Below are positions 19,171 to 56,317 of a DNA stretch of 64,000 nt, one piece after another. The notes under the pieces were generated by a model that worked only from the letters and a program-made list of their open reading frames with translations, ran no database searches and was not told where the DNA came from. Each line of letters opens with the position of its first letter. The first letter of the stretch is position 1. Made by a program: the position numbers and the translations under genes. Origin of the DNA: Squalus acanthias (taxonomy: Eukaryota); contig CM059430.1 of the NCBI GenBank assembly GCA_030390025.1, forward strand, positions 62,310,001 through 62,374,000, read 5' to 3'.

Positions 19171-19179
19171 CATATACCC

Positions 19180-26745: not shown

Positions 26746-26847
26746 CTGAGCGTATACGGTTCCCTCCTCTTCACGTTTACGTCTTGGAGTTTTCCTGGCT
26801 CTGCTCAAATCTAATGCAGCATAATGCACGGTCTCAGCCGCTGCTCC
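26746..26847 (-). CDS. Gene A exon 6, ITIM plus ITSM-like motif
   Basis: GAAAETVHYAALDLSRARKTPRRKREEEGTVYAQ; 102 nt, catgcag|...cag|gtagga. Confidence 0.85.
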
Positions 26848-32573: not shown

Positions 32574-32617
32574 CAGCTCTTGACGGCGGTTCGGTCCCAT
32601 TACACATTCTTCTTTAC
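32574..32617 (-). CDS. Gene A exon 5, short cytoplasmic exon
   Basis: 44 nt (GKEECVMGPNRRQEL), tttccag|...ctg|gtaggt. Supplies the required phase 1 to 0 switch. Homolog at 48422-48463. Confidence 0.75.
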
Positions 32618-33292: not shown

Positions 33293-33406
33293 CTTCATAA
33301 TTCTGCAGTCGGCACCGCGTCCCAATGAAGATTATTAGCACTAGAAACGCCAATCCACCCACCGCACACCCAGCAGCCCAGAAGTAAAGTGACTTACCGA
33401 CGCTAC
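33293..33406 (-). CDS. Gene A exon 4, uncharged transmembrane segment
   Basis: GSVGKSLYFWAAGCAVGGLAFLVLIIFIGTRCRLQNYE; 114 nt; ttgcag|...gaag|gtaaga. Confidence 0.88.
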
Positions 33407-35118
33407 CTGCAAGATTAATAGGAACATTAAGTTATTGCGGGCCTTGGTTAAAAATAGACCTCAAGATAGTTTATTGCTTAAACTACGGTGTTCTTTTCAG
33501 GAACTCCGCGGTACAGAACGGCAATAAGAAAGATTAAATACAAAATGTTATTTTTTATAGATATACTTTTTGAAGTAACTTCTTCATCGAATGCATCATA
33601 TATTCTGGATCAATCTGCGTATCGCACTACCGGTTTAGGGATCTCACAACACTGTTTTAGGAGAGTTAAAGTATGAGAGAGATCAATTTCCCATGACCAA
33701 AGGACTTGTTCTTGACCTTTCTTATTTATTTACATAAAGTTTGAAGAAATTGGAGGCATTTTGTCAAAAGCATTTCTTCGTTGTCCGCTCGAAATTCCGG
33801 ATTGCAGCAGTCTGTTAAAAAACCCTTTTCAATTATCTGAACTGTGATTATTACAGTACGAATGTCACTGAATCGTAAACGATATCAATGGGCGATGGTT
33901 CATTGATTATTGTCTTGGGGAGAGAAAGAGTTTTTCACAATATAATATATTGACCCAGTCGTACTGTCGCCATGTTGCGGGCACACTTTGAATGAGATTT
34001 ATGAGACAGTTTACAAGTAAACCCGCTGTGACATGGATAGGTGAGGGGTAAAAGCAAGACAGGGATTAATTTCATATCTCTACAGTAGAATTAGCCGATA
34101 GGGGGATGGGGATCAGGAACTGCATGGGAAGAAGCCCGAGTGCAAACAGAATGACGGCAGCTCCTGGCAACATTCTTGGTGCAAGGACAGCAGGCTATAG
34201 TAAAGAATAAAATGTTATTAAAATTGAAACAAAAGACATTGAACAGGTATTAATAATAAGCAGGTGCGGAAATATAATCGGGCTGCAATTATAAACTCAA
34301 AACGAATTGTTATACATCAATTAAAGGAATTTCAAAGAAAATAATGTTTGACAGAATATTTGTGTGGCTGTGGCCAGGAGTTACCAATGGAATAGATCTC
34401 GACCATGAAAGTTAAAGGGGGATGTAAGCTTGAACAGAATGGGAGAAGATAAGACCTAGGATTAACCATGTCGTCGTGTGTGAGAGTACTGGGATTTGGG
34501 AAGTGATTTGAATTTTAGTGTGTGCCTTCTTGGTTGCTCGTCTTAGCCAGCACCGGGGGTAGAAGGCCATTGCGTAACTGAAATATGAGACCTAGGAAAA
34601 CAACAAATGAGCTGGTGTTTGGGAGTAATTGACGGTGTAAAAGTTCTCACAGTGAATTGCCCATCAGAGGCCGGTTTCAGGAGCCGCACTGGGAGACCCT
34701 CGAGACCAGACAAACGAACTGCCGCTCCTGGTCCTGCAACTCATGTAAGGAACCAAATAATGGGGAAAATGAATTCAGTTTAACAAGGGGACACGTTTGA
34801 TTGTTTAGTAATAAACAGGAGATGTAAAATAATTGGATGGAAGAGATAAACCGCCCACTCATATTTGTTTTAACAATTGGAAGCTGATATGGTTTAACAG
34901 GCAGCTACTGGGTGAAGGGCGATAATAATCCTTAGGTTTGACAAAGGTTCCGGGTCTATAATATTTTACATTCAAACATTAATTTTCTCTTTAGTTTGCT
35001 GTTTCCTGGACGCTTTTTCAAACAAAATTTATGATTATCAATATGAACAAATTCTATGATATACCCTTTCAGAATATAACAGTAGCTGACCTCACTTCTT
35101 GGCCTGTTGACTTCGTAC

Positions 35119-35430
35119 CTGGGTCGGAATTAACAACTGTGTGGATGACAATGGCAGGACTCCGGAGGGAGGCATGAGATACCAAACAGATGTAAACAGC
35201 CCCGTTCGGCAAAGGCTGCGTCTCTTCCAAAGAGCTGGAAACTTCATAGAGTCCCTCAGCGTTCTGCCGTTCAGTGGAATTGATCCCAGTTGCGGTTTCG
35301 ACGCCATTTTTATACCAAACGAGGGTTAATTCGCGCGGGTAAAACCCAGCCGTTTCACACACAAGAGTCAGAGACGCAGCTGAATTGCTCTTGGGTGTCC
35401 TGGGAACAATCTTCAATGGATTTGGGGCAG
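35119..35430 (-). CDS. Gene A exon 3, C1-set Ig domain
   Basis: LTLVCETAGFYPRELTLVWYKNG...GLYEVSSSL...VYICLVSHASL (canonical C1 motifs); 312 nt, phase 1-1. Confidence 0.92.
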
Positions 35431-35864
35431 CTACGAAACAAGAAATGGGGAATATCAGGTTTCTAGTGGGATATTAAACATAAGATATGGGAGCACAACG
35501 GTATCCTCAGTCACTCCCTGAGAGAGGGAGCCGCGCATTAATCGAAAAGACTTTCAGTCAGTCATCAATATATTTGGAATTTGTTCCGCAAATTCCATTT
35601 CCAGAAGTCTGATGTAAGAAATACATTTTGAGATGAGTCGAGTAACATTTTACTTAATCTGGTTAATATTGATGACATTTTACACAACTTAGCAAATGGT
35701 ACGTCATATTATGCCAAATAATTAGCAATTCTCTGCAGAGTTTTCGTGTAAATGTATTAATATAATTGGTTTACAATTTCAAAGACGGTGCAAAAAAAAT
35801 GACAAAACTTCATCCTTGTTACATTTGATACATTTGGATGTTCCCGCTCACTCCGGTCACTTAC

Positions 35865-36185
35865 CGCACACAGTTAGATGTGATCCTGTTCCATTTCCAA
35901 TAATTCTTCCCTGACGCATCACTGCGCAGTGATACGTTCCAGAGTCCCGGAAAGTCAGGTTCAGTAACTCAAAAAAACCGGGTCCTTTATCTTTCAGAGT
36001 AAATCGTTTTCATTTATCGGCTCCGCTTTGCAGAAATTCTTTCTCATCATGTTTCCACCAACACACTTCTATCCCTGAATTGTCATCAGACAGGTGGAAT
36101 AAGCACTGGAAGGTGATGGCTGTCCCCATTAATTTAGTTACTTCTCTGGGAGTTTGAGACACGCTGATCGAAGTACGCGCAGCAG
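35865..36185 (-). CDS. Gene A exon 2, V-set Ig domain with fused J-like G strand (in-frame stop)
   Basis: ISVSQTP...ITFQC...EVCWWK...ADK*KRF...LLNLTFRDSGTYHCAV...IIGNGTGSHLTVC; 321 nt; acceptor ttttctaacag, donor g|gtaagt. Confidence 0.9.
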
Positions 36186-36381
36186 CTGTTAGAAAATACA
36201 TTCAAAGTTTGGTTAATTGTATTCTGTGCGGAACCAGATACTTTAGAACACATTACTGCATGGAACTGAAAATGAGAAAGAAGAATACAGACCGACTAAC
36301 TATATTTCATTCGATTTGTGTGGAAACTACTTGAGGTATGATTTTTAATTGAGACAGCTCGATTTGAGAATAATCAGGTAC

Positions 36382-36442
36382 CTGTGTAAATGATCCCTGG
36401 GAGAGACAGGAACAGGAAAAGAAGCATCACACTCGACAACAT
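36382..36442 (-). CDS. Gene A exon 1, signal peptide
   Basis: ATG start; MLSSVMLLFLFLSLPGIIYT; 61 nt, phase-1 donor ag|gtacct. Confidence 0.85.
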
Positions 36443-37040
36443 TCCGAGCAAAAGATTTAACGGATCACTGACTGCACTGACCGTGTGTTTGCCACTGAAA
36501 GCAGGGTTTGCTGATTATTTAAACTGAAATGCGTCGCAATGACGTTTTACATCCTGTGTCTTTGTGTTGAAAATAGGTTTCGTTTGTGAAGTGAAATTTG
36601 ATGACCGTTCTGCTCTTAGGCAGCCATTGGAATCAGCTATGTCACGGTCAGCAAAGAATTAGGAAAAATATTCTCCGAATTTCAAATGGTGAATTTACCA
36701 CCGATCGCTGAGCCAATGTTGGCTTCTCTCAGATTAAGATGTCGAATGTGCACATTCCTTCTCGTGAATCTCGTGAGGCAAATATTCTTACACTTCCCTT
36801 AGGTTGTACGCTGCTGTTAACGCCACCCTATATACTGGAAATGTCAAAGCTGAACAACATGGGAACAGTTCTAAATTGTTTACAATCAGTTCTTAAATAA
36901 CAGCAACAATATGGCTGGATGTGAGAAAATGACTGATTAACACAGTTGTTGTGTATAGAGGCTGTAATTCTGTACTATAATGTCACACATTGCTGCGCAT
37001 TCCACGGGAACTGTGGAGATCGTATTCATTGCGACGTGTT

Positions 37041-37801
37041 GGCCCAAAAATTCGGCTGAATACGGGAGAGTCCGAACTGTGCACTCTCGCGTATTCAGTC
37101 CCGAAGTGCCGGTTTCCTGCATGCACTGCGCATGCGCGGGAAAACGGCACCTCGGATATGGCGAGGGGGCGGTTCCTAAGTGAACCACGTGCGCACTACA
37201 GGCTGTGCGCACGCCGCACACTTAGGCTTTTTTTCAGGTTTCAACGCGAAGGTAAGCATGCAAGATTTTACACATGAAGAAAGGAGGCGTAAGACCCCCT
37301 TTTAACAAGGTAAGTAGTTAATTAAGTATTATTTTAATTTTTTTTCAACAGGTTTATCTTTTTTAGAGACTTTAAAGAAAGGTAAGTTTATTTTTATAAC
37401 TTTCAAAAAGAATTTAAATTTTTTCAAAAATTTAAATTTTACTTTAAAGTGGTTAATTTATTTAACTATAGTTATTTATTAATTTGATGGTTTTTTTGTA
37501 ATTTATTTGAGGTTTAGCTGTTCTTTTGTGGGCAATTTGTATTCATAGTTTTGACAGTTCTCCTGTCAAAGCTATGAATGAAAGATGGTGTGCTGCCATT
37601 GGCTCTCCATGCCCCATGTGATCCCAGAGTTCACATCGAACTAACTGCGCCTCTGGGACACGCACACACTACGCACCGGCACCAAGGAGAGGCCCAGGAG
37701 CTGAAGTTCGTGTGGGCCCGAAAAACAACGGCCGGCGCGGAGTGTGATATTACGGGGGATCCTTACCCCCGCGGCAAGACTACGAGTCAAATTTCTGGGC
37801 C
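37041..37801. mobile_element. Harbinger-type MITE family 1
   Basis: ggcccaaaaatt...aatttctgggcc. Confidence 0.85.
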
Positions 37802-39379
37802 GTGAACTTATTATGAGCTACAACAAGGTAGAAAGCCTTTGTGATGAGGGTTACGCCATTCTGTGGAATATTTCCGTACTTCCTGTTGCTGAACATGATT
37901 TACGCTCCATATAAAATAACGCGGACCCGAAATTAAGTTACATTTTCCTTCCGATTTTGCGCAGCCTCTTGGGAGATTTTCTTCTATTTTAAAGGCGCTA
38001 GAAAAATACAGATTGGTCTTGTTGTTGGATCCTGTGGTGGGTTCTGGTTTCAAATGGAAACATTCGCTGCTCTCCAAACTTGACCACAAACATCAGATAA
38101 AACTAAGGGTGAGTGATTGTATGAATTAATCAGAAAATTATACTACGCACACAATCTTACATAGTAAGTGCGGCGTCCGTGGACACGTGCAATATGAGAA
38201 CCCATTAGGATACCCCTCAAATCACGGTAGAGCCTACCATGCACTCGACTGAGAAGTATATTACCCTTCACTTTTCTTAACATATTTTTGCCCATTGAGC
38301 TGTTGACCTGGAAGCTCATTCGACGAACGGATTTTGTTTATATTGCTAAAATTTCCGATCTGTGGCTTCCTGCGGGCGGAAAGCTCCGATCAGCAAAAAA
38401 TCTACGAACCTACCTGTTGGTCCTGGAGATACGGTGGTTTCCGATCCTGGGCCTCTCCTCTTTAAAAGGCGCAGAGGCCCAGGCATCCCAGGGGCGCATG
38501 CGGTTTGCAAGCGCCCCTGGTATCACGTGGGCCAGCTCAACCAATGGAAGAAGGGAATCCCCCTTCATACTTTTGACAGTTCCAAACGGACGGAACTGTC
38601 AAAAGTATGAATGGGGATGATTTCAAAAATGCACCAACACACTGAAATAAATAAAGAAAAACCATTACATATATAAAATTAATTAAAATAGCCTTCAATG
38701 TTAAACAAAAATGTACTTATTTGAAATGTTTTTAATATATTTTAGCGGGGCTTAATATAAACTTACCTTATCGGACAGTATTTTTAATTTATAATTGAGT
38801 GAAAAAATCGTGTTTTTCTATTTTTAAACTCTTATGCCTGTAAAAGCAGGCCTTCCGCCTGCTTTACCAGGCATAAGAATTCTATGGCCTTTCAGCGGGC
38901 GGAAGTTAAGCAAATAGCGCAACTCTCGTCCGCAGAGACACTTTTCTTGGGCAAGCGTGGGATCTATCAAGAGAATTCTTAACAGATCGCTAGTTCCGGG
39001 TTTCAGTGCATGCGCTTCGCATGCATAAACCCGAAACTTGCGCGGACCCTATGGGCGCGTACACACCTCGTACGCACCCGTGGGGGTCGGAAAATATTGG
39101 TAAATATTTCTTCTATCAAACCAATTTGCACAGTATAATCGTGGCTACCACCATTTTCCTTCAAACCTTTCAGGCAGGACGCGCTGATAACAGAACAATG
39201 CATTTGCAAAGAAGCCCTGAACTCAAACACACATCGGCAGTTCTCTGATGGAATCATCAAAGTTCTATTTGCTAAATATTCAATAAGGTTATTATAATGT
39301 GAAAATAAGTCCCTACGTTATTACTGACTTTTCAGATTCAGGTTACCGTGTTCGGAATAACATCAGGTTCCAGAGATAT
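37802..39379. other. Local inversion between two inverted MITEs
   Basis: The segment is the reverse complement of the homologous sequence at 11890-13070 and 52420-52630, while both flanks are in direct orientation. Confidence 0.85.
38344..39100. mobile_element. Harbinger-type MITE family 2, degenerate ends
   Basis: Homologous to 23361-24116. Confidence 0.7.
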
Positions 39380-40142
39380 GGCCCAGAAATTAAACATCGA
39401 TGGTTCCCGCGGGGGTAATGATTCCCCGCGATATCGCACTCCGCTCCTACCTTTTTGTTTGGGGCCCACACGAACTTTACTTTCAGATCCTCTCCCTGTT
39501 GCAACCGTGCAGTGCTTGCGTGTCCCAGAGGCGCAATTAGTTCGTGCGAGCTCTGGGATCACGTGATTCAGTTAGAGCCAATGGCAGCACACCATCTTTC
39601 ATTCATAGTTTTGACAGCAAGGGCTGTCAAAGCTATGAATACTACAAACCCCCAAAAGAACAGCTAAACCTCAATTAAATTTAAAAAAGCCATCACATTA
39701 ATAAAATAAGTATAATTAAATAAATTAACCACTTTAAACAAAAAATAAAATGTTTGAAAAAATGTAAAATCTTTTTCAAAGTTATAAAAATAAACTTACC
39801 TTTCTTTAAAGTCTCTAAAAAAGATAAACCTGTTGAAAAAATGTTAAAATAACACTTAATTAACTACTTACCTTGTTAAAAGGGGGTCCTACGCCTGCTT
39901 TCTTTATGTGTAAAATCTTCACCACTTACCGGCGCGTTCAAACCTGGAAAAAAAAACGAAATGCACTGCATGCGCACAACCTGTAGCGCACACACGGTTC
40001 ACTTAGGAACCGCCCCCTTTGCAATTCACGAAGTTCCGGTTTCCCGCACATGCGCAGTGCATACAAGAAACCGGCATTTCGGGACCTAATACGCGAGAGT
40101 ACACAGTGCGTACTCTCGCATATTAGGTTTAATTTCCGGGCC
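39380..40142. mobile_element. Harbinger-type MITE family 1 (inverted relative to the 37041 copy)
   Basis: ggcccagaaatt...aatttccgggcc. Confidence 0.85.
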
Positions 40143-41579
40143 ATTATGTAAGTCTTCATCAGCCATTTTATTGAAAGTTAAGGTACATTTTATAAAATAC
40201 AGTCTATCTCGCATGGAGCTGAACAAGGAGATTCAAACTGGAGTGTAGTCATCAGATGACGCAGGGTTAGAAGCTGGGTGATATTTGGACCAGAGCATGC
40301 AGACGTACCTCTACACCCATTTAAAGTCATATACATTCTGACCTATAAATTCCGATATTCATTTCTACAAAATTTAATGTTAAACAGTTAGCCTGCAATT
40401 ACACTATCTGGCAGTGGCGGCGCTGCAGTGCCACTAAGGCGGGGAGGGTGTAACTACAGCTTGACGTACTTAGAGTAACATTTTCCATTGTAAATGGTAC
40501 AGTGGACAGAAAATGTGCGCAGATATAATAATATATGTTATTGACTGACTTCTGCCTTGATTGAACTGCCGCCTTTAAGATTATCTGAGTGTAGATGCAT
40601 TTAAGGGGCGGCAAAATAAGCATATCAGGGAGAAGGGAATAGAGGGTTATGCTGATAGAGTTAGAGGAAGAAGGATGCGAGGAGGATCGAGTGGTGTATA
40701 AGCGACGGCATGCACTGGTTGGGCCGAATTCCCTGTTTGTGTGCTGTTTATTCTATGTAATTCTATGGAAGGAATCACCTGCCTGTTTAGGTAGGAGTAA
40801 AATAACCCAAGGTATTTTTGAAGAAGAACGCGCAGTTCTCCCTGTTTCCTCTTCACCAATCCTTCCCATAGATCTTTTTCACTCCTATCCTGTGGTTTCT
40901 CTCAGTGAGAGTGATAACTGGTTCCAAACTGAACCATTTTGTTCTGTGGTCCATGCCCAACAGGAACAGGCATAACTTTTGTTGGAAGTTTTCTGTTAGA
41001 ATCAAAGTAACGTCTGCCATTAAATTTCAATATCAAAGAGTTGCACGCTGCCATTGAACGAAATTGCAAGGACGTTAGTGAGAGTTCATGAAGCAATCGT
41101 TTTAATTGATTCCCGAAAATTTCTATTTGAACTAACAAATTAATACATCAATAAAATGTCGCTTTTCTTACCCACTGACTGGGATATAAATCAATTACTT
41201 TTTTCAATCACATAATACAGTTATATAAATCATTAAATATGTGCATTTAATATCTGTAGTTACATAAACCACAAGATCTGGCTTGCACTGAGTGGGGCTG
41301 TGATCACTGAACTCAGAAACGAGGAGCTCTAATGCATGCGCGCTATTCTCTACACAGACTATTCAAAGCAGTCACAGTGCTGCATGTTGGGAGCTGTCGG
41401 CTCCTGCCTTTTTGAGCTTGTTTACCTCTGACAGAGTGCTATCGCTGGAAAGCCCTTACACTGTAAACTCTGGATTGTGAGAGAGGTGCTAGCTTCATAT
41501 TAAAACGTAATCAGAATCTGATGAAAACACAGAAAATTCTATTGTATCAATTGGTTAAATATTTTCTTGTAAATTTTGT

Positions 41580-42540
41580 AATTTTCCAATCCTCCTTTGA
41601 TACGAGGCTGGTTCCAGAGGAGTGGAGAATTGCACAAATTACACCCTTGTTCAAAAACGGGTGTAAGGATAAACCCAGAAACTACAGGCCAGTCAGTTTA
41701 ACCTCGGCAGTGGGTAAGCTTTTAGAAACGATAATCAACGACAAAATTAACAGTCACTTGGACAAGTGTGGATTAATTAAGGAAATCCAGCACGGATTTG
41801 TTACTGGTAAATCGTGTTTAATTAATTTGATTGAGTTATTTGATGAGGTAACAGAAAGGGTTGATGAGGGCAATGCGGTTGATGTGGTGTATATGGACTT
41901 CAAAAAGGCGTTTGATAAATTGCCACATAATAGGCTTGCCAGAAAAGTTGAAGCCCATGGAATAAAAGGGATAGTGGCAGCATGGATACGAAATTAGTTA
42001 ATTACAGTTAACAGAGAGTAGTGGTGAACGGTTGGTTTCCGGTTGGAGGAAGCTATACAGTGATGTTCCCCAAGGGTTGCTACTGCTTTTCTTGATATAT
42101 ATTAATGACTTGGACTTGAGTGTACAATGCACAATTTCAAAATATGCGGATGAGACAAAACTTGTAAGTATAGTGAACAGTGAGGAGGATAGTGGTAGAC
42201 TTCAAGAGGACATAGACAGGCTGGTGGAATGGGCGGACATGTGGCAGATGAAATGTAACGCATAAAAGTAGGAAGTGATGCATTTTGGTATGTTAAACGA
42301 GGAAAGTCAATGATCTGGAATGCACTGCTGGAAGGGTGGCGGGTGTAGATTCAATTATGGCTTTCAAAAGGGAATTGGATAAGTAAATGAAGTAAAAATA
42401 ATTGCAGGGCTAAAGCAAAAGGGCTGGCGAAGTGGGATTAGCTGAAGTGCTGTTGCGGAGACCCGGCACGGGCTCGACGGGCCGAACGGCCTCCTTCTGT
42501 GCTATAACCATTCTATGCTTCTATTCTATGATTCTATGTA
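41580..42540 (+). mobile_element. CR1 RT fragment and tail
   Basis: NYRPVSLTSAVGKLLE...QHGF...YMDFKKAFDK...YADETK. Confidence 0.88.
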
Positions 42541-43057
42541 TTATGATGTTATAAAACTTGCTTCCGCTTGTAAGCCTCAGCTTAATGGTGAACGAAAAAC
42601 ACAGTATTATCAAACAATTTGGTTGGTTCCTCCTTATCTAATGGTTATACTTTACTGACTGGTCATGCGTTATTGTTTTAATACGATATTAGCAATTCAA
42701 CATTGGTGCTGTTTCTACCCTCCTTCTGCTCATTTGATTTTGGCGTTCACATATCAATTATCATTTGATGCTTTTTAATGATGTTAACTTAATTTAAACA
42801 CAACAGATGTAAGTGATATTAAACGACACAATCTTCGAGATAGATTGTTGGCATTCTCCGACCAGAATGGTTTGTATATACATTCCCAGATTCCTTTAGG
42901 TCGACAGGCTTAGATTTCTGGAATTGACTAACTCTTTCGTGCTTCGGTCCGTGATGGTCCTCTTGGTCCAAATATTGAGAATGTGGATGAACGGGTGTTG
43001 TCACATGAGGAAAGAAGGTCAAAGGGCCATGGTGCAACTCACCATGAAAAGAATAAT

Positions 43058-43490
43058 AGAATCATTGAAATTTATGGCACAGAAGGAGGCTATTCGGCCC
43101 ATCGTGTCTGCGCCCGTCGAAAAAGAGCCATCCAGACGATCCCCTCCTCCCAGCTCTTGATCTATAGCCTTGCAGGTTATGGCACTTCAACGCATATCCA
43201 AGAACTTTTTAATTGTGATGAGGGTTTCTGCCTCTACAACCCTTTCAGGCAGTGTTTTCCAGATCCCCAACGCCCTCTTAGAGAAAAAAGATCTCCTCAA
43301 CTCCCCTCTAATCTTCTACCAATTACGTTAACCTATGCCCCTTGGTTATTGCCTTCTCTGCTAAGTGATATACGTGCTTCCTATCTACTCTATCTAGGCC
43401 CCTTATAACTTTATACACCTCAATTAATTCTTCCCTCAGCGTAATCTTTTCCAAAGAAAACAACCCCAGCCTATCCAATCTTTTTTTTTA
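43058..43490 (-). mobile_element. CR1 3' fragment
   Basis: Same family as 22070-22500. Confidence 0.75.
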
Positions 43491-44918
43491 ACTCGTTCAT
43501 GGGCCGTGGGTATTGCAGGCAAGGCCAGCATTTATTGCCCATTCCTAGTTGCCCTTGAGAAGTTGGTCGTGAGCTGCCTTCTTGAAACGCGTCAGTCTGT
43601 GTGGTGAAGGTACTGCCACAGTGCTGTTAGGTAGGGAGTTCCAGGTCTTTGACCCAGGATGAAGAAAGAAAGCCTATTTACTTCAAAGTCAGGATGATGT
43701 ATGACTTGAAAGGGAACTTGGAGGTGGTGGTGTTCCGATGCATCTGCTGCCCTTATCCTTCTAGGTGGTAGAGGTCGCAGGTTTCGGATGGGCTGCCGAA
43801 GAAACCTTGACGAGTTGCTGCAGTGCATCTTGTAGATGGTACACACTGGGTAAGCCAATGTTGGAGCGAGTGAATGTTTAAGGTGCCAATAAAGCGGGCT
43901 GCTATGTCCTGGATAGTGTCGAACTTCTTGAGTGTTGTTGGAACTGAACTCATCCAGGCAAGTGGAGCGTATTCCATCACCCTCCTGACTTGTGCCTTGT
44001 AGATGGTGGACAGGCCTTGGGGAGTCAGGAAGCGAGAGACTCGCCACAGAATACCCAGCCTCTGATCTGCTCTTGTTGCCACAGAATTTTTGTGGTTGGT
44101 CCAGTTAAGTTTGTGGTCAATGCTGACCCCCCAGGATGTTGATGGTGGGGGATTCGGCGATGGTAATTCCATTTAATGTCAAGGGGCGGTGGTTAGGCTC
44201 TCGCTTGTTGGAAATAGTGATTGCCTGGCACTTGAATGACGCGAATATTACCTGCCACTTATCAGCCCAAGCCTGAATGCCGTCCAGGTCTTGTTGCATG
44301 CGGGCATGGACTGCTTCATTATCTGAGGAGTTGCGGATGACACTCAATACTGTGCTGTCCTCAGCGAACATCCCAACGCCTGACCTTATGATGTACGGAT
44401 GGTCATTGATAAAGCAGCTGAATATGGTTGGCCCTAGGACATTGCCCTGAGAAACTCCTGCAGCGATGTCCTGGGGCTGTGATGATTGACCTCCAACATC
44501 CACAACCATCTTCCTTTGTGCTAGGTATGACTCCAGCCGGTGGAGAGTTTTCTCCCCAATTCCCTTCGACTTCAGTTTTACTAGGGCTCCTTGATGTCAC
44601 ACTCGGTCAAATGCTGCCTTGATATCAAGGGCAGTCACTCTCACCTCACCTCTGGAATTCAGCTCTTTTGTCCATGTTTGACTGTAATGAGGTCTGGAGC
44701 CGAGTGGTCCAGGCCGAACCCAAATTAGGCACCAGTGAGCAGGTTATTGGAGAGTAAGTGCTGCTTCATAGCAGTGTCGACGACACCTTCCATCACTTTC
44801 CTAATGATTGAGAGTAGACTGATGGTGCAGTAATTGGCTGGTTTGGATTTATCCTGCTTGATGTGGACAGGACATACCTGGGCAGTTTTCCATATTGTCG
44901 GAAAGTTGCCAGTGTTAT
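43490..44918 (-). mobile_element. Second-family LINE, RT and 3' end
   Basis: NYCTISLLSII; GVSQGNVLGPTIFSCFIND; FAEDS; YKAQVRRVMEY. Confidence 0.85.
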
Positions 44919-45199
44919 ACGACTCCGTTGATACCTTACTTCTTATCAGAACCCGGTACTGATAGAACGCCCAAATGTTCATCGTTTTTAATGCTGTACG
45001 TGAATGTGTCACTTTCGTTTCCATAATTATCAAAATAATCTACTGCACGTTGACTTAATCTCCAGCTCGAAGCCAACGAATTTTTATTAGTTGAACAAAT
45101 AGAATGTGACATAGATTGCAACATAACGGCAAAGAAACATTTGCACAAGTACTTACATCTCGCAGGCCCTGTGTCATTCCGGATAAATCTACTAAACTC

Positions 45200-46270
45200 T
45201 TGCAGAAACCTGAGCAAATCAAGCCCAGTCAGCACAAATTTCAAAAAGGCAGATCGCGCTTGACTTATAGGATTTACTGAAGAAATAACAGAGAAGAGAA
45301 AAAGGAAAGGTAATAGATGAAGTTTAAATACATTTTAAAAACGCATTTGATAACGTTCCACATATTATAACGCCACGTGGAAGTAAGAGTAAGGTGGCCA
45401 CATGGTTGGAGAGATAGTTGGAAGATAGGAAACAAAGTTTAAGGGTAAAATAACGTTTCTCGCGTTAAGATGTGGCGAGTGGTGTTCCACGGGCACTGCG
45501 TTGGGCTTCTTCTATATATTATACACATCAATTATCTTGACTGGGGAATTGAGGGTGCATCATTAAAACGTGCAGATGACATTTTATGGGGAGTCGGGAA
45601 AGAAATTATGCTGCAGGTCGTGAACTGCAGCAGACGACATCGAAAGTTAGTTTGAAGGGCAGATAGATGTCTGATTTTGAATGCAGGGAAATGTGAAATA
45701 GTATATTTTTGCAGGTACATTTAGAAAAAGGAAATGCATCTTGAACGGTATGATTTTAAATGCTGCAGAGGAGCACAGGGACCTCAATGAATGATTGAAA
45801 CAGAAGTTCATTACGAAGTAAAAATACAAAGGGAGTGTCTTGGCTTAGATTTTGGTGCCATCGAATACAGAAACAAGGAGATAATGTTCAACTGGTGTAA
45901 GAGCTTATGTAGAACTATGGAAGAATACAAAAATAAATTAAACGGCGCTGCCTAACTGACCAAGAATGAAGAATTATTAATTGAGAAACGTGGACTTCTT
46001 TAACTGGAGCTCAAAAATTGCTGAGTGACTTGATAGAGGTTTTCAAAACTACAAGGTTTTATGACAAGAACATAGTGATAGGTTATTTTCACTGTCCAGT
46101 AGACGGTGGCGAGTGAGTACAACTTTAACATAATCGGAAAAAATAAAGGGAGAGGTAAAATACTCTTTGCTTGTTTAGACTTTGAGATGTGGACGTGTCT
46201 GCCACAAAACGTTACTAAATCACAGCCCAAGATTTATTTTAGAATTGAATTAGTTGCATGAAAAAGAGGA
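45200..46270 (+). mobile_element. Ancient, highly decayed CR1 remnant (also at 61670-62740 and 25470-25800)
   Basis: Residual motifs agtcagcac..ttt.aaaaaggcagatcg (SQHGF.KG.SC), gagtggtgttccacggg (SGVP), gcagatgac. Confidence 0.55.
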
Positions 46271-47399
46271 ATATTAACGATTGTGTGAATTTAAATGGAA
46301 AACGGAACTAACTGAGTGGAGAGAAAAAAAGTACAGGCTTTGTTTCTCTGTTGTAAAACGCTTGTTAATGCACAGTCATCAATCCCGGGCAGCGAGGCAG
46401 AACAAGAGGAATGGATTCAATTCGTCTTGTATTATCTTTACATTCGGAGCTGACCCCTTGGTAACTGGAACTGTTCAGCTGCCTTTCTTCCAGTAACTAG
46501 CCACACAATGTTCTAACCCAGTAATTCAAGTGATCTACTTCCTCAATACTCACAGCATAATCATGGAAACTACGAGTTGTTTATAGCTGACGAGGCAACC
46601 ACGCTAATATGGATAAATGGTTGCAGTTCTATTCTCTCTCTTGAGGCTTGTTAATTTTCTAGTTGCGTGCCAAACCATACAGACTGCTTATATCTATATT
46701 ATCCACGACTGTCAACATTTTAAATGCCTGTTTAGTGCGGTCTTTTGTCCAATAAAAATGCATTACGCTCTGTCGGGCTTTTCTCACAACTTAAGTAGTA
46801 TGACCCGGATTCATTATTGTTGTTCGTCTCAGAACTCTCTGGAATCACTATCCATTTGAAGATACAACCGAATGAGAATAATGGAGGTATTCGATTTTGG
46901 AAGCGACTTGGAGTTGTCAGGGCGCATAGATTCGAATAGGAATCATACGGAATTTAGAGAAAGGCATCTTATACGCCTTCATCTGCAAGCTGTTTTCAGA
47001 GGGATTATGGAAGAATCCATAAATTTGAGCGCCCTGCCTTCCAAACCAGGAAAATCGCCTGCACAGGAGGTCAGAACACGGTAACGCAACACACAAGTCA
47101 AAACTCAGGCTTTGCAGTTTTACCCGCAAAAAATAAATAAATCAGCAATCGTTGATTGATAAGAGAGGTCGTGTAACATCTACTTTTATTGAATTTTATT
47201 TGATGATATCAAGATACAGCAGAACAAATAGCGTATCATTGCAGATATTTGTCATCTGTGAAATACTATAGATTGATCAAAAATGTGCAACGCAAGAGCG
47301 CTTTCTTACAAATAATTAAATGAAAATTCCTCAAATATTTAAGCAATAAAAAACGATTACACCCGCATTCAATGATATAACACTCGAATATGTTGCACT

Positions 47400-47763
47400 G
47401 ATTATTTTATTGTTGTAGACTGACAAATCTAGAGTCGCCTAGCTCCCTTGTTTTGTCTGTAATCCCATGTTTGGAAATATTGTAAATTGGTCGTTTTTCC
47501 AATTTTGTGGACTGCTGACGAAAACAATCACCAGAATAACACACAGACAGCTTGAGGTACACTACACGACCCGAGTCACCCAACCTTGTAGTCTCAGTTA
47601 TCGCATGAATGTTGGTGCTGCACTGGTGATCTGTGTCTTTCTGATCCGCTACCCAGCCCCGGCTGATGGAACACAGTCCTCTCCTCTTCAAGCTAACATC
47701 TTGTAGTTAACTTAGTTCTGCTCAAACCTACTGCAGCATATCAACAATCTAAGCCTTTTCTAC
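47400..47763 (-). pseudogene. Decayed ITIM pseudo-exons downstream of gene B
   Basis: 47763-47663 is homologous to exon 6 with both splice sites lost and stops. Sequence from 47456 is homologous to exon 7 with deletions. Confidence 0.75.
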
Positions 47764-48144
47764 CCGCATGGGCCAGAAATAATTATATATGTTCCAATGT
47801 GGCGAGTTCATTGCCTTCACCAGTTTACAGACTACTGGTTAAGCATTGAATAGAACAACATAGGCTCGAAACAAATTGCAGGAGGCACAGTTAATGCAGT
47901 GATACAAGTGTGAATGTTAAGACCGGTGAGTACTGTGGTCGTTATAACTAATAATTAAACCTGTCAATATTCGTTTTACAATACAATGTTACGGAAATGA
48001 TTAAGTGAGCAGTAGTTCCAGAACACGGTGTTGCCCAATTACAAATAATTTTGAATCGAAAATAGTTATTAATTAGGTAAATTTTCAACGAAACGGGCCG
48101 ATTTCTTGTCTGCTAGTTAATCACTTAAACCAGCAATGCACCGG

Positions 48145-48252
48145 GGGCGCGGCTGAAATTGATCTTCGGCGGTAGCGCGAATCAGGCGATAGCGATTGGG
48201 CAACAAGTCTTACACCGCGCTCGCATATTTTTCCGAAAACCAATTTGGCCCC
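48145..48252. mobile_element. Short MITE-like insertion
   Basis: ggctgaaattg...caatttggcccc inverted ends. Absent at the homologous position near 32405. Confidence 0.5.
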
Positions 48253-48951
48253 GAGGGTGAAATCCTTCCCGGCCGCCGTCAAGAATTTTTGTGAATACGA
48301 TTAGAATGACCCATTAAGGGGGTCAAATAAATTTAGGAAATAGACAAACAGTTCTGACGTGATTAAGATATACATTTTTCTTCATATTTGAACCTTTTGC
48401 TGGGTGAATAAATAAAAGTAGCAGCTCCTCATGCCGGTTCGGTCCCTTTATAGAATTTTTTCCCTGTGAAGTAATGAAATTTAATCATAATGATTGATTG
48501 ATATATTTACTGAGTTTGCATATTAATGCTTTCAAAGACCTTTCTAGAGTCGCTATAATGCCGAACTTCATTTTCAATTTCAGATTATGCTGTTAGTGTT
48601 TGAAATCTCACTGCTGAGACCAGGAATGTTGTTCAACCATTCTGGGCCGGAGTCTCACACCTATTCAGGATACATTCTATTCATCATCCTGCGAAGTGGA
48701 AATTTCTGTTGCAAATATCCAGATAATCAGATCCTTTAATTTAAATTCTGCGAGTATTTCTGCGTTTTAAAGAACTGAATCTGTTGCTGTTTGGAACAAT
48801 CAGCGCTCCCTGAAATCAGATAACACTGCCTTCAACTTTAAGTCATAATTTAGTTCTCCTTCCTCTGCGCTATTCGGAAACACTCACTCCCCCGTCCTCC
48901 TCAGGTCGCTGAAGTATTGTATGAAAATCAAATGCTTATAATAGATCTTAC

Positions 48952-49065
48952 CTTTATTAATCTGCAATTGACAGTGCATCCCAATGATGATCAGGAGCAG
49001 CAGGAACGCTAATCCATCCACCGCATATCTAAATCCCGAGTAGTAAGAGGACATACCGACGCTAG
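48952..49065 (-). CDS. Gene B TM exon with Arg and Asp
   Basis: ASVGMSSYYSGFRYAVDGLAFLLLLIIIGMHCQLQINK; 114 nt; splice sites intact. Confidence 0.85.
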
Positions 49066-51503
49066 CTGCAAGAATAATAGGAACAAAATATTAAGTTGTA
49101 CATTGTGACGAGTGTTTCCTAAAAAGAGATCTCAGCAGAGTTCTTTGGTTGAACTATTGATGTTTTATTAACTCCGTCGTACAGAATGGCAATAAGGATG
49201 TTTTAATAAAAACTGTTATTCTTTTTTAGATATAATATTGGGAGGGACTAATGCTTCTAATGGGTGAGAAAATTATTGCTTAAAATGCGAAGAGGGATTG
49301 GTGTAAGAGAGGTAATATACGAGTGGAATGTTTCCCTTTACCGAATGGCTTGTATTTTTCCTTCACTTTTCTTATGTTCTTTACCTACTGTCTGATGTTA
49401 TCCCAGGCAATTCGGTGGCAATTGTTTCGCCGTTCCCTTTAGAAAATGCCGAATTGCAGAAATCGGTTAAAACCCCCTGTTCACACATCTGTACTTTATT
49501 GAAGTAAGAATGTCACTGTATAGTCATGGGGATGGTTTATTAAATATTGTCTGCCGAGTTTAGCAGTTCTTAATAAAATGATGTAACCGGCTGAAAAGCA
49601 GTCAGACAGTAAGAACAGTTTAAATTAAATTTATGAGACAGATCCCACTTCAGCCCTTGTGCGAAGATTAGAAGTTGGCCAAAGGGTTAATTTCAGAACT
49701 CTTCATTCAGAATCGCCAAAAAGCGGATCAGGATCGGGAAATGAATTGGGAGAAACCCGAGAGCAGACAACTTGATCGTAGCTCCTGGTAAACGTCCAGA
49801 TGAAGCAGTCAACGTTAAAGAATAAACATTTTAACATGGAAACAAAACAAAGAGTAACAATCAGCAAAATATGAAATATCATCGGATAACAAAGATAAGC
49901 CTCATTTTTATATGTGTTCTTTATCAAATACAGGAATTTGAAGGCTTAATAATGTTTTACAGAGAATGTTTGTACGGCAGACGATATACCCGGTTTTACA
50001 ACACATTGGGTTCCACTAATCATTCAAACATGAATTTTATGTCTTTGTTTATATTCCCATGAGTTTTCCGTGTACTCCAGCAAACATTCAAAAAGGTTTC
50101 CTTCATTTCAATTGCTTATGAAAAGATTTCCAAATTCTTTCGATTCAGGTGCCCACGGCTCCGACTTACATCGTTCAGAAAGCCACATTCTTTCCTATGC
50201 TGCAGTACAACCACTTACTCGCCATGGGCAAAGCTATGGGAAATAAGCTTATATATGGATTTCCAACGGTGGTGTGCACAGTACGTTTGAGCATAGGCTA
50301 TTGTATAACACGAAGGTGACTCCGGGGGTTAGAATAACATCGGTCGCCTGTGGTGTTTTGCTTCTTGCAATTGTATATTTGCTTCTATCCAACTTGCGAA
50401 TTACTTTTGTGCTGCCCTCTCTATCTTTGCCTTACACCTTCTTCTTTCTTAATCTTTCTATTTGTATGTTTGTCACACATTTTATTCATTGTGCTGTCTG
50501 TAAAGGTCTATCTAAAGATCTATGCAGCAATTTTTTGGATTTTGTCTGTTTCACTCCTAATAAATGAATCGCTAATACTTCTCTCCTTAGGTAGTTCCAA
50601 ATGTTGTGTATTGGCTCCCACAAAAGATACATTTTAATATACTCAAAGTCTCTCTCTTATCATTGTTTACGGTCTTAATGACGTGGGAAGATGGAAGGCA
50701 ACATGTACTTTGTGAAGGAGGCTTTTGGAAAGGTGATGCAAGATGCAGAGTTGAGAGAGTAAGTGGGATGGGGAGACTGTGTGCCTGGAAGGGGTGTAGG
50801 CAGATCTGTGGCCAGGACGAAACAATAGAATAGATTTCGATTTGAAAGTTGGAGGGCAAGGTAGTCTTGAACCGAACGGGAGAAGGTACGAACTAGGATT
50901 AATCATGATGTCTTGTGTGGAAACATGATGGGATTATGGTATGTTTTCTTGGTTGCTCGGTTAATCCATTCACTTGGGGGTAGAAGGCCATTGCTGAAAA
51001 ATGAGAGATGGAACACAGGAAATGAGTTTGTGTTTGCGAGTAATTTACACTGTAAAAACCTCACAGTGAATCGCCCATCAGAGGTCGGACTCAGGAGACC
51101 CACTAGGAGACGCTCGAAGCCAGACAAACGAAGTGCCGCTCTTGGTCCTGCAACTCATGTAAGGAACCAGATAAAGGGAAACAAATGAGTTTTGAGTAAT
51201 CAGCAAGAAATGAAAACAATTGGATAAAAGAGGTTCATCGCCTGCTCATATTTGTTTAACAATTGGAAGCTGATAAGTTTTAACAGGCAGCTACTGGGTG
51301 AAGGGCGATAATAATCCTTAGGTTTAACAAAGTTTCCGGGTCTATAATATTTTACATTCAAACATTAATTTTCTCTTTAGTTTGCTGTTTCCTGGGCGCT
51401 TTTTTAAACTAAATTTATGATTATTAATATGAACAAATTCTATGATATACCCTTTCAGAATATAACAGTAGCTGACCTCACTTCTTGGCTGTTGGCTTCG
51501 TAC

Positions 51504-51815
51504 CTGGGTCAGAATTAACAACTGTGTGGATGACAATGGCGGGAGTCCGGAGGGAGGCATGAGATACCAAACAGATGTAAACAGCCCCGTTCGGCACTGT
51601 CTGCGTCTCTTCCAAAGAGCTGGAAACTTCATAGAGTCCCTCAGTGTTCTGCCGTTCAGTGGAATTGATCCCAGTTGCGGTTTCGACGCCATTTTTATAC
51701 CAAACCAGGGTTAATTCGCGCGGGTAAAACCCAGCCGTTTCACACACAAGAGTCAGAGACGCAGCTGAATTGCTCTTGGGTGTCCTGGGAACAATCTTCA
51801 ATGGATTTGGGTGAG
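51504..51815 (-). CDS. Gene B C1-set exon (open)
   Basis: 312 nt, splice sites intact, 5 aa differences from the gene A C1. Confidence 0.9.
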
Positions 51816-52249
51816 CTACGGAACAAGAAATGGGGAATATCAGGTTTCTAGTGGGATATTAAACATAAGATATGGGAGCACAACGGTATCCTCAGTCACT
51901 CCCGGAGAGAGGGAGCCGCGCATTCATCGAAAAGACTTTCAGTCAGTCATCAATATATTTGGAATTTGTTCCGCAAATTCCATTTCCAGAAGTCTGATGT
52001 AAGAAATACATTTTGAGATGAATCGAGTTGCATTTTACTTAATTTGGTTAATATTGATGACATTTTACACAACTTAGCAAATGGTACGTCATATTATGCC
52101 AAATAATTAGCAATTCTCTGCAGAGTTTTCGTGTAAATGTATTAATATAATTGGTTTACAATTTCAAAGACGGTGCAAAAAAAATGACAAAACTTCATCC
52201 TTGTTACATTTGATACATTTGGATGTTCCCGCTCACTCCGGTCACTTAC

Positions 52250-52419
52250 CTCACACAGTTAGATGTGATCCTGTTCCATTTCCAATAACTCTTCCGTGAC
52301 GCATCACTGCGCAGTGATACATTACAGAGTCCCGGAAAGACAGGTTCAGTAACTCAAAAAAACCGGGTCCTTTATCTTTCAGAGTAAATCGTTTTATTTT
52401 ATCGGCTCCGCTTTGCAGA
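52250..52419 (-). pseudogene. Gene B V-exon 3' remnant
   Basis: LQSGADKIKRFTLKDKGPGFFELLNLSFRDSVMYHCAVMRHGRVIGNGTGSHLTV* (TGC changed to TGA at 52253-52251). Confidence 0.88.
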
Positions 52420-52642
52420 CCAATCTGTATTTTTCGAGCGCCTTTAAAATAGAAGAAAATCTCCCAAAAGGCTGCGCAAAATCGGAAGGAAAATGTAACT
52501 TAATTTCGGGACCGCGTTATTTTATATGGAGGATAAATCATGGTCAGCAACAGGAAGTACGGAAATATTCCACAGAATGACGTAACCCTCATCACAAAGG
52601 CTTTCTACCTTGTTGTAGCTCATAATAAGTTAAGGACACATA

Positions 52643-53403
52643 GGCCTAGAAATTAAACATCGATGGTTCCCGCGGGGGTAAGGATTCCCCGCGATATCGC
52701 ACACCGCGCCTACCTTTTTGTTTGGGGCCCACATGAACTTTAGTTTCAGAGCCTCTCCCTGTTGCAACCGTGCAGTGCTTGTGCTTCCCAGAGGCGCAAT
52801 TAGTTCGTGCGAGCTCTGGGATCACGTGATTCGGTTAGAGCCAATGGCAGCACACCATCTTTCATTAAAATTTTGACAGCAATGTCTGTCAAAGCTATGA
52901 ATACTACAAACCCCCAAAAGAAGAGCTAAACCTCAATTAAATTTAAAAAAGCCATCACATTAATAAAATAAGTATAGTTAAATATATTAACAACTTCAAA
53001 CAAAAAATAAAATTTTTGAAAAGATGTAAAATCTTTTTCAAAGTTATAAAAATAAACTTACCTTTCTTTAAAGTCTCTAAAAAAGATAAACCTGTTGAAA
53101 TAATGTTAAAATAACACTTAATTAACTACTTACCTTGTTAAAAGGGTGTCCTACGCCTGCTTTCTTTATGTGTAAAATCTTCACCACTTACCTGCACGTT
53201 CAAACCTGAAAAAAAACCGAAGTGCACTGCGTGCGCACAACCTGTACCGCACACGCGGTTCACTTAGGAACCGCCCCATTTGCAATTCACGAAGTTCCGG
53301 TTTCCCGCGCATGCGCAGTGCATACAGGAATCCGGCATTTCAGGACCAAATACGCGAGAGTACACAGTGCGTACTCTCGCATATTAGGTTTAATTTTCGG
53401 GCC
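52643..53403. mobile_element. Harbinger-type MITE family 1 (duplicate of 39380-40142)
   Basis: ggcctagaaatt...aattttcgggcc. Confidence 0.85.
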
Positions 53404-54839
53404 ATTATGTAAGTCTTCATCAGCCATTTTATTGAAAGTTAGGGTACATTTTATAAAATACAGTCAATCTCACATGGAGCTGAACAAGGAGATTCAAACT
53501 GGAGTGTAGTCATCAGATGACGCAGGGTTAGAGGCTGGGTGATATTTGGACCAGAGCATGCAGACGTACCTCTACACCCATTTAAAGTCATATACATTCT
53601 GACCTATAAATTCCGATATTCATTTCTACAAAATTTACTGTTAAACAGTTAGCCTGCAATTACACTATCTGGCAGTGGCGGCGCTGCAGTGCCACTAAGG
53701 CGGGGAGGGTGTAACTACAGCTTTACGTACTTAGAGTAGCATTTTCCATTGTAAATGGTACAGTGGACAGAAAATGTGCGCAGATATAATAATATATGGT
53801 ACTGACTGACTTCTGCCTTGATTGAACTGCCGCCTTTAAGATTATCTGAGTGTAGATGCATTTAAGGGGCGGCAAAATAAGCATATCAGGGAGAAGGGAA
53901 TAGAGGGTTATGCTGATAGAGTTAGAGGAAGAAGGATGCGAGGAGGATCGAGTGGTGTATAAGCGACGGCATGCACTGGTTGGGCCGAATTCCCTGTTTG
54001 TTTGCTGTTTATTCTATGTAATTCTATGGAAGGAATCACCTGCCTGTTTAGGTAGGAGTAAAAGAACCCAAGTTATTTTTGAAGAAGAACGCGCAGTTCT
54101 CCCTGTTTCCTCTTCAGCAATCCTTCCCATAGATCTTTTTCACTCCTATCCTGTGGTTTCTCTCAGTGAGAGTGATAACTGGTTCCAAACTGGCCCATTT
54201 TGTTCTGTGGTCCATGCCCAGCAGGAACAGGCATAACTTTTGTTGGAAGTTTTCTGTTAGAATCAAAGTAACGTCTGCCATTAAATTTCAATATCAAAGA
54301 GTTGCACGCTGCCATTGAACGAAATTGTAAGGACGTTAGTGAGAGTTCATGAAGCAATCGTTTTAATTGATTCCCGAAAATTTCTATTTGAACTAACAAA
54401 TTAATACAACAATAAAATGTTGCTTTTCTTACCCACTGCATGGGATATAAATCAATTGCTTTTTTCAATCACATAATACAGTTATATAAATCATTAAATA
54501 TGTGCATTTAATATCTGTAGTTACATAAACCACAAGATCTGCCTTGCACTGAGTGGGGCTGTGATCACTGAACTCAGAAACGAGGAGCTGTAATGCATGC
54601 GCGCTATTCTCTACACAGACTATTCAAAGCAGTCACAGTGCTGCATGTTGGGAGCTGTCGGCTCCTGCCTTTTTGAGCTTGTTTACCACTGACAGAGTGT
54701 TATCGCTGGATAGACCTGACACTGTAAACTCTGGATTGTGAGAGAGGTGCTAGCTTCATATGAAAACGTAATCAGAATCTGCTGAAAACACAGAAAATTC
54801 TATTGTATCAATTGGTTAAATATTTTCTTGTAAATTTTG

Positions 54840-55800
54840 TAATCTTCCAATCCTCCTTAGATACGGGGCTGGTTCCAGAGTCTGGAGAATTGCACAAATT
54901 ACACCCTTGTTCAAAAACGGGTGTAAGGATAAACACAGAAACTACAGGCCAGTCAGTTTAACCTCGGCAGTGGGTAAGCTTTTAGAAACGATAATCAACG
55001 ACAAAATTAACAGTCACTTGGACAAGTGTGGATTAATTAAGGAAATCCAGCACGGATTTGTTACAGGCAAATCGTGTTTAACTAACTTGATTGAGTTATT
55101 TGATGAGGTAACAGAAAGGGTTGATGAGAGCAATGCGGTTGATGTGGTGTATATGGACTTCAAAAAGGCGTTTGATAAATTGTCACATAATAGGCTTGCC
55201 AGAAAAGTTGAAGCCCATGGAATAAAAGGGATAGTGGCAGCATGGATACGAAATTGGTTAATTACAGTTAACAGAGAGTAGTGGTGAACGGTTGGTTTCC
55301 GGACAGGAGGAAGCTATACAGTGATGTTCCCCAAGGGTTGCTACTACTTTTCTTGATATATATTAATGACTTGGACTTGAGTGTACAGGGCACAATTTCA
55401 AAATATGCGGATGAGACAAAACTTGTAAGTATAGTGAACAGTGAGGAGGATAGTGGTAGACTTCAAGAGGACATAGACAGGCTGGTGGAATGGGCGGACA
55501 TGTGGCAGATGAAATGTAACGCATAAAAGTAGGAAGTGATGCATTTTGTTATGTTAAACGAGGAAAGTCAATGATCTGGAATGCACTGCTGGAAGGGTGG
55601 TGGGTGTAGATTGAAGTATGGCTTTCAAAAGGGAATTGGATAAGTAAATGAAGTAAAAATAATTGCAGGGCTAAAGCAAAAGGGCTGGCGAAGTGGGATT
55701 AGCTGAAGTGCTCTTCCGGAGACCCGGCACGGGCTCGACGGGCCGAACGGCCTCCTTCTGTGCTGTAACCATTCTATGCTTCTATTCTATGATTCTATGT
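54840..55800 (+). mobile_element. CR1 RT fragment (duplicate of 41580-42540)
   Basis: Same RT motifs. Confidence 0.88.
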
Positions 55801-56317
55801 ATTATGATGTTACAAGACTTGTTTCCGGTTGTAAGCCTCAGCTTAATGGTGAACGAAAAACACAGTATTATCAAACAATTTGGTTGGTTCCTCCTTATTT
55901 AATGGTTATAGTTTACTGACTGGACATGCGTTATTGTTTTAATACGATCTTAGCAATTCAACATTGCTGCTGTTTCTACCCTCCTTCTGCACATTTGATT
56001 TTGGCGTTCACATATCAATTATCATTTGATGCTTTTTAATGATGTTAACTTAATTTAAACACAACAGATGTAAGTGTTATTCAACGACACAATCTTCGAG
56101 ATAGATTGTTGGCATTCTCCGACCAGAATGGTTTGTATATACATTCGCACATTCCTTTAAGTCGACAGGCTTAGATTCCTGGAATTGACTAACTCTTTCG
56201 TGCTTCGGTCCGTGATGGTCCTCTTGGTCCAAATATTGAGAATGTGGATGAACGGGTGTTGTCACATGAGGAAAGAAGGTCAAAGGGCCATGGTGCAACT
56301 CACCATGAAAAGAATAA

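Follow-up and report, generated by a model that had tools for sequence, protein, structure and literature searches.

How two receptors with opposing signals come to carry nearly the same ligand-binding half is the question raised by two neighbouring genes, here called A and B, in a 64,000-nucleotide stretch of the Squalus acanthias genome (assembly GCA_030390025.1, contig CM059430.1, positions 62,310,001 to 62,374,000; this whole stretch is the window, and coordinates count from its first letter). Both genes consist of immunoglobulin (Ig) superfamily exons on the minus strand of the window, and by their sequences they are members of a head-to-tail cluster of V(J)-C1 receptors, SIRP-like and found in sharks and rays, whose relatives (P numbers below) are shark, ray and chimaera proteins known as automatic gene models. 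An earlier note on this DNA had proposed that B is the ectodomain of A fused by unequal crossover to the activating-type transmembrane (TM) region and tail of a third gene, C, giving the same specificity with opposite signalling. We find, where the two copies of a tandem duplication meet, a hybrid gene, probably made by one unequal crossover between A and C in the C1-TM intron, and we find that this hybrid is now dead.

An identity step inside the C1-TM intron

Comparison of the two genes reproduced the earlier counts, with C1 exons differing at 5 of 104 amino acids and TM exons matching at 19 of 38. The change between these two states is abrupt and lies almost exactly where the sharp switch had first been placed (34858/51246), the best change point over 1607 ungapped columns being 34857/51244 with a support interval of 34856-34892. 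Identity is 81.1% over the 433 columns to its left and 97.1% over the 1174 columns to its right, and a step is strongly preferred to no step (twice the log-likelihood difference, 105) and is ahead of a logistic gradient by 10 log-likelihood units, such that a gradual change was rejected and the stepwise expectation of the earlier note stood. No further significant step was found on either side within the 1607-column span. Left of the step one sees two levels of identity, 81% in the adjoining intron and 72-75% around the TM exon, with the TM exon itself at 71.9%.

To the right of the step, high identity continues far beyond the ectodomain. Three blocks of copy 1 are repeated in copy 2, namely 34870-36033 at 97.1%, 39380-44919 at 97.3% and 44919-47534 at 98.0%, and the partner of the last reaches 64000, the end of the window. 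Divergence between the copies is about 2.5% (231 substitutions in 9291 columns, with 12 small indels) and spans the ectodomain, the intergenic DNA and the tail of the next gene, as predicted for a whole-unit duplication rather than a short conversion tract. The high identity that had been described as continuous does run to the window end at about 97.5%, but it is interrupted by two losses (36034-39379 and 58196-61384), and the 3' end of the next gene, which had been expected there, is present only as decayed tail sequence. The unit was also larger than the ~16.4 kb first given: with both losses restored we estimate an ancestral unit of ~19-19.6 kb, the 16.4-kb spacing arising because each copy suffered one loss of similar size.

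From these observations we infer the direction, the order of events and the signalling as follows. One non-allelic homologous crossover in the C1-TM intron, between the inhibitory gene A and its upstream activating-type paralogue C, would have duplicated ~19-19.6 kb and thereby placed the leader, V and C1 exons of A on the Arg-bearing TM and short tail of C; a sharp step, in register and with homologous 81% DNA on its left, speaks for such an event. Because all extracellular exons are phase 1, the hybrid would have been in frame at birth, when it would have paired with an adaptor bearing an ITAM, the tyrosine-based activation motif of immunoreceptors, while binding the ligand of A. Gene B would then have died of a stop codon and of a deletion that took away its leader, the DNA upstream and the 5' V half, and A would have gained a nonsense codon later. 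The deletion presumably removed 2.4-3.1 kb, the size depending on whether the left miniature inverted-repeat transposable element (MITE) predates the duplication.

Two haplotypes placed end to end by the assembly could also produce a tandem repeat, and the rise of identity close to the right end, to 99% with 2 mismatches over 291 columns, is what such an artefact might leave. The copies differ, though, by 2.5% substitutions with only 12 small indels between them, at a transition/transversion ratio of 0.67, where five comparisons of older repeats or paralogues within the window gave 0.58-1.00, and derived changes, polarised against an older paralogue, lie on both copies (24 vs 18). Because, alongside this substitution evidence, each copy has kilobase rearrangements of its own and the junction sits in register within 81%-identical DNA, a false duplication appears very unlikely. 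The transition/transversion ratio is low (0.58-1.00) in all six paralogue comparisons of the window. The near-identical stretch at the right end (47244-47534 vs 63710-64000) possibly reflects later conversion.

Mosaic ancestry, decay and the pairing of opposing modules

Evaluating the TM exon of gene B further, a profile search found a catshark protein (P0089; Scyliorhinus canicula, XP_038661932.1) whose TM matches that of B at 23 of 35 amino acids and that of A at 15. The two group at 100/99 and share a long stem that includes the Arg, and P0089, which ends a few residues later, has a short tail. Its ectodomain, in turn, matches the C1 of gene B at 53 of 104 positions and sits in a separate clade (99/95), a joint clade of the A, B and P0089 ectodomains being rejected (p-AU 5.6e-5, approximately unbiased [AU] test). 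Because its TM kin in the catshark carries an ectodomain of another clade, gene B is, as judged from these comparisons, a mosaic with halves of different ancestry, and its TM is a conserved activating-type module. A placement of the B TM in the oldest Arg clade of the family (P0039, P0042, P0050, P0055 and P0058) was not supported, as that clade is separate at 99/97.

The same exon might instead be a long-decayed inhibitory TM that acquired its Arg by drift, as suggested by its identity to A, no higher than that of the flanking introns (73-75%), and by a branch for B that was at first long (0.72 vs 0.11). Adding P0089 overturned this explanation, since the B branch is then 0.11 and the long stem with the Arg is shared, and in a neutral simulation the frame, splice sites and length were all kept in only 3.5% of 20000 runs; decay is thus largely refuted, and we give it scarcely any credence.

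Gene B as a whole is nevertheless a pseudogene, broken after the hybrid formed. No leader or 5' V half of gene B was found in the window, where the leader and the 5' V each occur once, in copy 1. The V remnant ends in a stop codon and has lost a Gly that is invariant in 13 of 13 relatives. Since the duplication, the V half and C1 of A and B have diverged with a nonsynonymous to synonymous rate ratio (dN/dS) of 1.16, and of the 7 V differences, small numbers as these are, 5 clearly polarise to B, 1 is ambiguous and 1 site changed in both, which together fits lost constraint in gene B. One might still suppose that B works as an activating receptor with the specificity of A, or that its C1 and TM exons are used by read-through splicing from C, perhaps because both exons are open with intact AG/GT sites and compatible phase and the TM is still hydrophobic (best 19-residue Kyte-Doolittle mean 2.04 vs 2.47 in A). 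Against this stand the missing leader and 5' V, the stop and the lost Gly, the dN/dS of about 1 and a stop in the supposed partner A, and we consider such a function highly improbable. The gene appears to be a fossil of receptor-pair making, not a working receptor.

Gene A is of inhibitory type. Its model comprises a leader, V-set exon (PF07686) with a J-like GxG strand, C1-set exon (PF07654), TM and three tail exons, with GT-AG boundaries throughout and 373 codons, and its tail holds two strict immunoreceptor tyrosine-based inhibitory motifs (ITIMs) by the consensus of PMC8631942, plus two TxY motifs that are not strict immunoreceptor tyrosine-based switch motifs (ITSMs). Its V exon contains an in-frame TGA at 36010-36012 (codon 79 of 373), where 11 of 13 relatives have Arg. 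Skipping of the V exon would leave gene A in frame and bypass this stop. Activating paired receptors are defined by a TM Arg or Lys with a short tail (PMC3533184), and the Arg TM and predicted 11-residue tail of B agree with this, as the ITIMs of A do with an inhibitory member. Neither gene, however, would give an intact surface protein as read here, B lacking its leader and 5' V and both carrying a stop. Because both genes are broken, the receptor of equal specificity and opposite signalling foreseen by the earlier note is not supported, and 'same ligand, opposite signal' describes, at most, how things once stood; what endures of that proposal is the tandem duplication of a whole unit, joined within the C1-TM intron, and an activating-type TM on a foreign ectodomain.

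Across the family, we evaluated the association of TM charge with tail length in the 57 of 82 relatives whose TM could be recognised, leaving out the 25 rows without one. Tails of at least 60 amino acids occurred in 1 of 12 Arg/Lys proteins vs 32 of 45 others (7 independent pairs, median sign-test p 0.031). A first test for at least one motif gave 4/10 vs 30/43 (p 0.14), and at least two lax motifs, a threshold picked after data inspection, were seen in 0/10 vs 25/43 and then in 0/12 vs 27/45, each of these counts again leaving out 25 rows whose TM was not recognisable. Three pairs from single sharks show the same opposition that A and B record, with near-identical ectodomains on dissimilar TMs: Mustelus (smooth-hound) P0083/P0008 (ectodomain 205/210, TM 19/38), Scyliorhinus P0085/P0015 (206/210, 24/38) and Heptranchias P0079/P0058 (112/121, 6/36), each setting a partner with an uncharged TM and a long tail with tyrosine motifs against one whose TM has an Arg and whose tail is shorter. 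Ectodomains cluster by species, and a single clade of Arg types was rejected (p-AU 5e-82), while TMs of Mustelus and Scyliorhinus tend to group by type (85/87), although not significantly (p-AU 0.14). Further sets of uncharged long-tail and Arg short-tail proteins with near-identical ectodomains are P0085/P0015/P0086 and, across species, P0012/P0009, these sets coming from sharks and rays.

These pairs also bear on which gene was the recipient. Were it A, then B and C would be ordinary activating-type tandem copies, and A would have received its ectodomain and upstream DNA from the array by a deletion-type crossover or a long conversion ending at 34857, which would give identical sequence inside the window. 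The TM and tail of A are nearest P0005/P0017 types (tail 73/102 vs 50/102 for P0004) and its V nearest P0001 (69/107 vs 52-55), and in two other sharks opposing partners already have ectodomains with 97-98% identity. This course of events needs two events rather than one, however; the catshark TM orthologue of B also lacks an A/B-like ectodomain, so that an earlier swap would still have to account for a mosaic B; and AU tests for mosaicism in A are not significant (p 0.083, 0.275 and 0.091). We regard A as recipient as an unlikely, if serious, alternative, and favour B clearly, though not decisively, over it.

Several observations weigh against a single crossover that made B from A and C. The duplicate does not diverge evenly along its length (chi2 45.7, df 18, p 0.0003), with the lowest values at the right end, and exchanges may therefore have followed later. 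Four residues after its Arg, gene B has an Asp that a single relative out of 82 shares and that is atypical for an activating TM; the site is Gly in both P0089 and A, and the Asp is probably a late change. The TM and tail of gene A are closest to the clade of the P0089 ectodomain and its V to another, because of which gene A (26371-36442) may be an older mosaic too, with the non-significant tests just given. The link between charge and tail is also imperfect: strict ITIMs occur in 3/12 Arg/Lys proteins vs 29/45 others (Fisher p 0.022), with a median p of 0.22 among independent pairs, and P0043 combines an Arg with a 79-residue ITIM tail. The ectodomain of gene C, beyond 64000, decides between B and A as recipient.

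Rearrangements and repeats around the junction

Both copies of the unit have since been rearranged (Table 1). Copy 2 has no equivalent of 36034-39379 save for one 215-bp piece in opposite orientation, whose copy-1 counterpart lies ~1.4 kb upstream of the gene A start codon. Because an older paralogue, at 11471-22502, has the copy-2 orientation of the 37802-39379 segment, the inversion occurred in copy 1. Its breakpoints are the inner ends of two MITE-like copies, ~1.4 kb upstream of the start codon of gene A, and the inversion may affect the promoter of that gene. The 58196-61384 segment was considered as an insertion in copy 2 and rejected, since a long interspersed nuclear element (LINE) runs across its left junction.

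Table 1. Coordinates of receptor exons, duplicated units and rearrangements in the window.
Feature	Position	Strand	Remarks
Gene A leader exon	36382..36442	-	61 nt, phase 1; sole copy in window; 19/25 aligned aa match P0001 leader
Gene A V-set exon, J-like GxG end	35865..36185	-	PF07686, E 1.7e-10
Gene A C1-set exon	35119..35430	-	PF07654, E 1.1e-13
Gene A TM exon, uncharged	33293..33406	-	Gly at diagnostic column
Gene A cytoplasmic exon 1	32574..32617	-	
Gene A cytoplasmic exon 2	26746..26847	-	ITIM VHYAAL and TxY motif
Gene A last exon	26371..26538	-	ITIM LTYATI and ITSM-like TEYAQL, stop
Gene B V, 3' half only (56 codons)	52250..52418	-	Final codon, 52251-52253, is TGA; truncated at 52418
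Gene B C1 exon	51504..51815	-	Open, AG/GT intact
Gene B TM exon	48952..49065	-	Open, AG/GT intact; Arg at 49028-49030, Asp at 49016-49018
Gene B cytoplasmic exon 1	48422..48463	-	2-nt deletion, donor GT>CT; predicts 11-residue tail without ITIM
Decayed ITIM-exon homologues behind gene B TM	47410..47765	-	Acceptor AG>GG, stops, indels
Decayed tail sequence, putative gene C	63876..64000	-	TM exon predicted at 65418-65531
Duplicated unit copy 1: A ectodomain, intergenic DNA, B tail and TM	34858..51244		
Duplicated unit copy 2: B ectodomain remnant, intergenic DNA, start of C tail	51245..64000		Runs off window
Crossover interval, gene A C1-TM intron, left edge of copy 1	34856..34892		Change-point analysis, alignment
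Putative novel junction, gene B C1-TM intron	51243..51278		Change-point analysis
81%-identical intron stretch, partner 50806-51244	34368..34857		Supplied homology; possible older exchange layer
215-bp piece joined to gene B V remnant	52417..52631		96.7% to 37805-38019 in reverse; 3-bp microhomology at deletion junction
1.58-kb segment inverted in copy 1	37802..39379		Between opposite MITE-like copies 37040-37801 and 39380-40143
3.19 kb, mostly LINE-derived, kept in copy 2, lost from copy 1 at 44919	58196..61384		

The window is 41% GC and repeat-rich. Non-coding elements of ~750 bp, 80-95% alike and with short terminal inverted repeats, which we take to be MITE-like, lie at 7851-8604, 24641-25382, 37040-37801, 39380-40143 and 52643-53404, and a related family lies at 23370-24117, 29447-30169 and 38350-39095. 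Retroelement debris at 41467-41994, 57389-57865, 60618-61199 and 9319-9666 has Pfam matches to RVT_1 and a GDSL-like ORF1; an open reading frame at 1-489, which had no Pfam match, is presumably Penelope-like, and we take 31125-31330 to be a shark short interspersed nuclear element (SINE). An older copy (74-83%) of the upstream and intergenic block 36644-43482 is present at 11471-22502, and to its left no leader, V, C1 or TM remnant was found, which suggests a lost neighbouring gene. A search for additional gene exons at 1-26 kb of the window found none, and the window gave no Rfam match at the gathering threshold.

Another observation concerns the C1-TM intron itself, which contains a weak internal duplication (34645-34851 vs 34077-34296; 34654-34876 vs 49710-49927) with scores of 26 and 30, where shuffled sequences reached at most 16, and from the gene B side 21 vs 19 and 15 vs 17. 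A far older crossover out of register may have left it as a scar. The N-terminus of the Heptranchias model P0071 matches the decayed tail region at 47440-47580, hinting at a similar head-to-tail layout and a mis-joined gene model.

Kinship, known systems and meaning

A separate profile search returned 78 matches, of which 77 are named and all 77 of these chondrichthyan; the closest C1 match was 72%, to Heterodontus, and a V-domain search for closer relatives gave one protein at 59%. In the PDB, relative P0087 matches best to SIRP-alpha (E 1.9e-14) and SIRP-gamma, and the top Atlas clusters are SIRP-named. The family resembles SIRP-alpha and SIRP-beta in its joined-VJ V and C1-set domains and in having both ITIM-bearing and charged-TM short-tail members, but SIRPs have two C1 domains (PMC12975943) and here each gene has one C1 exon, with no further Ig exon in the window (tblastn, 88 relatives). 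We call it SIRP-like only, because it has one C1 rather than the V-C1-C1 arrangement and because SIRP kinship rests on best matches.

An unsplit, non-rearranging VJ-type exon is likewise found in UrIg, PRARP, NKp30 and NITR. UrIg is VJ-C1 (PMC10751288, PMC11599192), and the J consensus of PMC11599192 is matched only in part by the J-like end of gene A. The C1 of gene A matches UrIg2 at E 1.3e-12; UrIg2 differs in being listed as V-C1-C2-C3. NKp30 is a single V domain and NITRs are V-I. Nothing found here identifies the cluster as any of these four. In a literature search largely confined to journals open to all readers, and without supplements, neither this shark family nor the locus was found described, so that a description may exist, e.g. 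in comparative immunogenetics.

The mechanism itself is already known, and the hybrid junction, which is well supported, is of a known kind. FCGR2C is a hybrid at the junction of an unequal-crossover tandem duplication that joins an inhibitory ectodomain to an activating signalling end (PMC6563257), as gene B probably does; gene B also has extended tandem identity (97.1-98.0% in three blocks, 9.3 kb aligned), a sharp junction in register within a gene and halves of different ancestry. The two differ in module size (~80 kb vs ~19 kb here), in the activating part (an intrinsic ITAM-like tail vs a TM Arg) and in receptor family, which is unrelated. Many human FCGR2C alleles are null. The macaque activating KIR3D likewise acquired an Arg-bearing TM by recombination, a KIR3D ectodomain being joined to the KIR2DL4 TM and tail with the Arg near the TM start; a splice site was mutated later, and the receptor pairs with FcR-gamma (PMC8102735). 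It differs from gene B in being functional and fixed and in lacking V or C1 domains, and adaptor binding is established there whereas in the shark it is only predicted.

The Mustelus and Scyliorhinus pairs, in turn, follow the pattern called merohomogenization (KLRC/NKG2, KLRI, KLRB, Ly49 and PIR), in which ligand-binding exons are homogenised within species and signalling parts are orthologous across species (PMC3210942). The systems in that paper are of rodents and primates and are mainly ascribed to gene conversion, whereas the shark locus shows a whole-unit duplication junction.

We tentatively suggest, as one possible and less than even account, that cartilaginous fish have an undescribed, antigen-receptor-like V(J)-C1 paired-receptor cluster in which several ancient cassettes for signalling (the ITIM tails and no fewer than three Arg-TM lineages) persist across species while ectodomains were repeatedly swapped via a hotspot in the C1-TM intron, such that the window would log successive rounds as layers of ~60%, 81% and 97% identity, and intact alleles of A and B may segregate. 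The lasting value lies in the smooth-hound and catshark pairs, whose 98% identical ectodomains stand on Gly/long-tail vs Arg/short-tail modules. The window adds a breakpoint that can be read for the way in which receptors of opposite signal retain matching ectodomains, conversion vs recombination being left open in PMC3210942. It also points to a large SIRP-like VJ-C1 paired-receptor family of sharks and rays that stands under automatic database names only, and it is relevant to how the oldest jawed vertebrates recognise self innately and to the relatives of antigen receptors.

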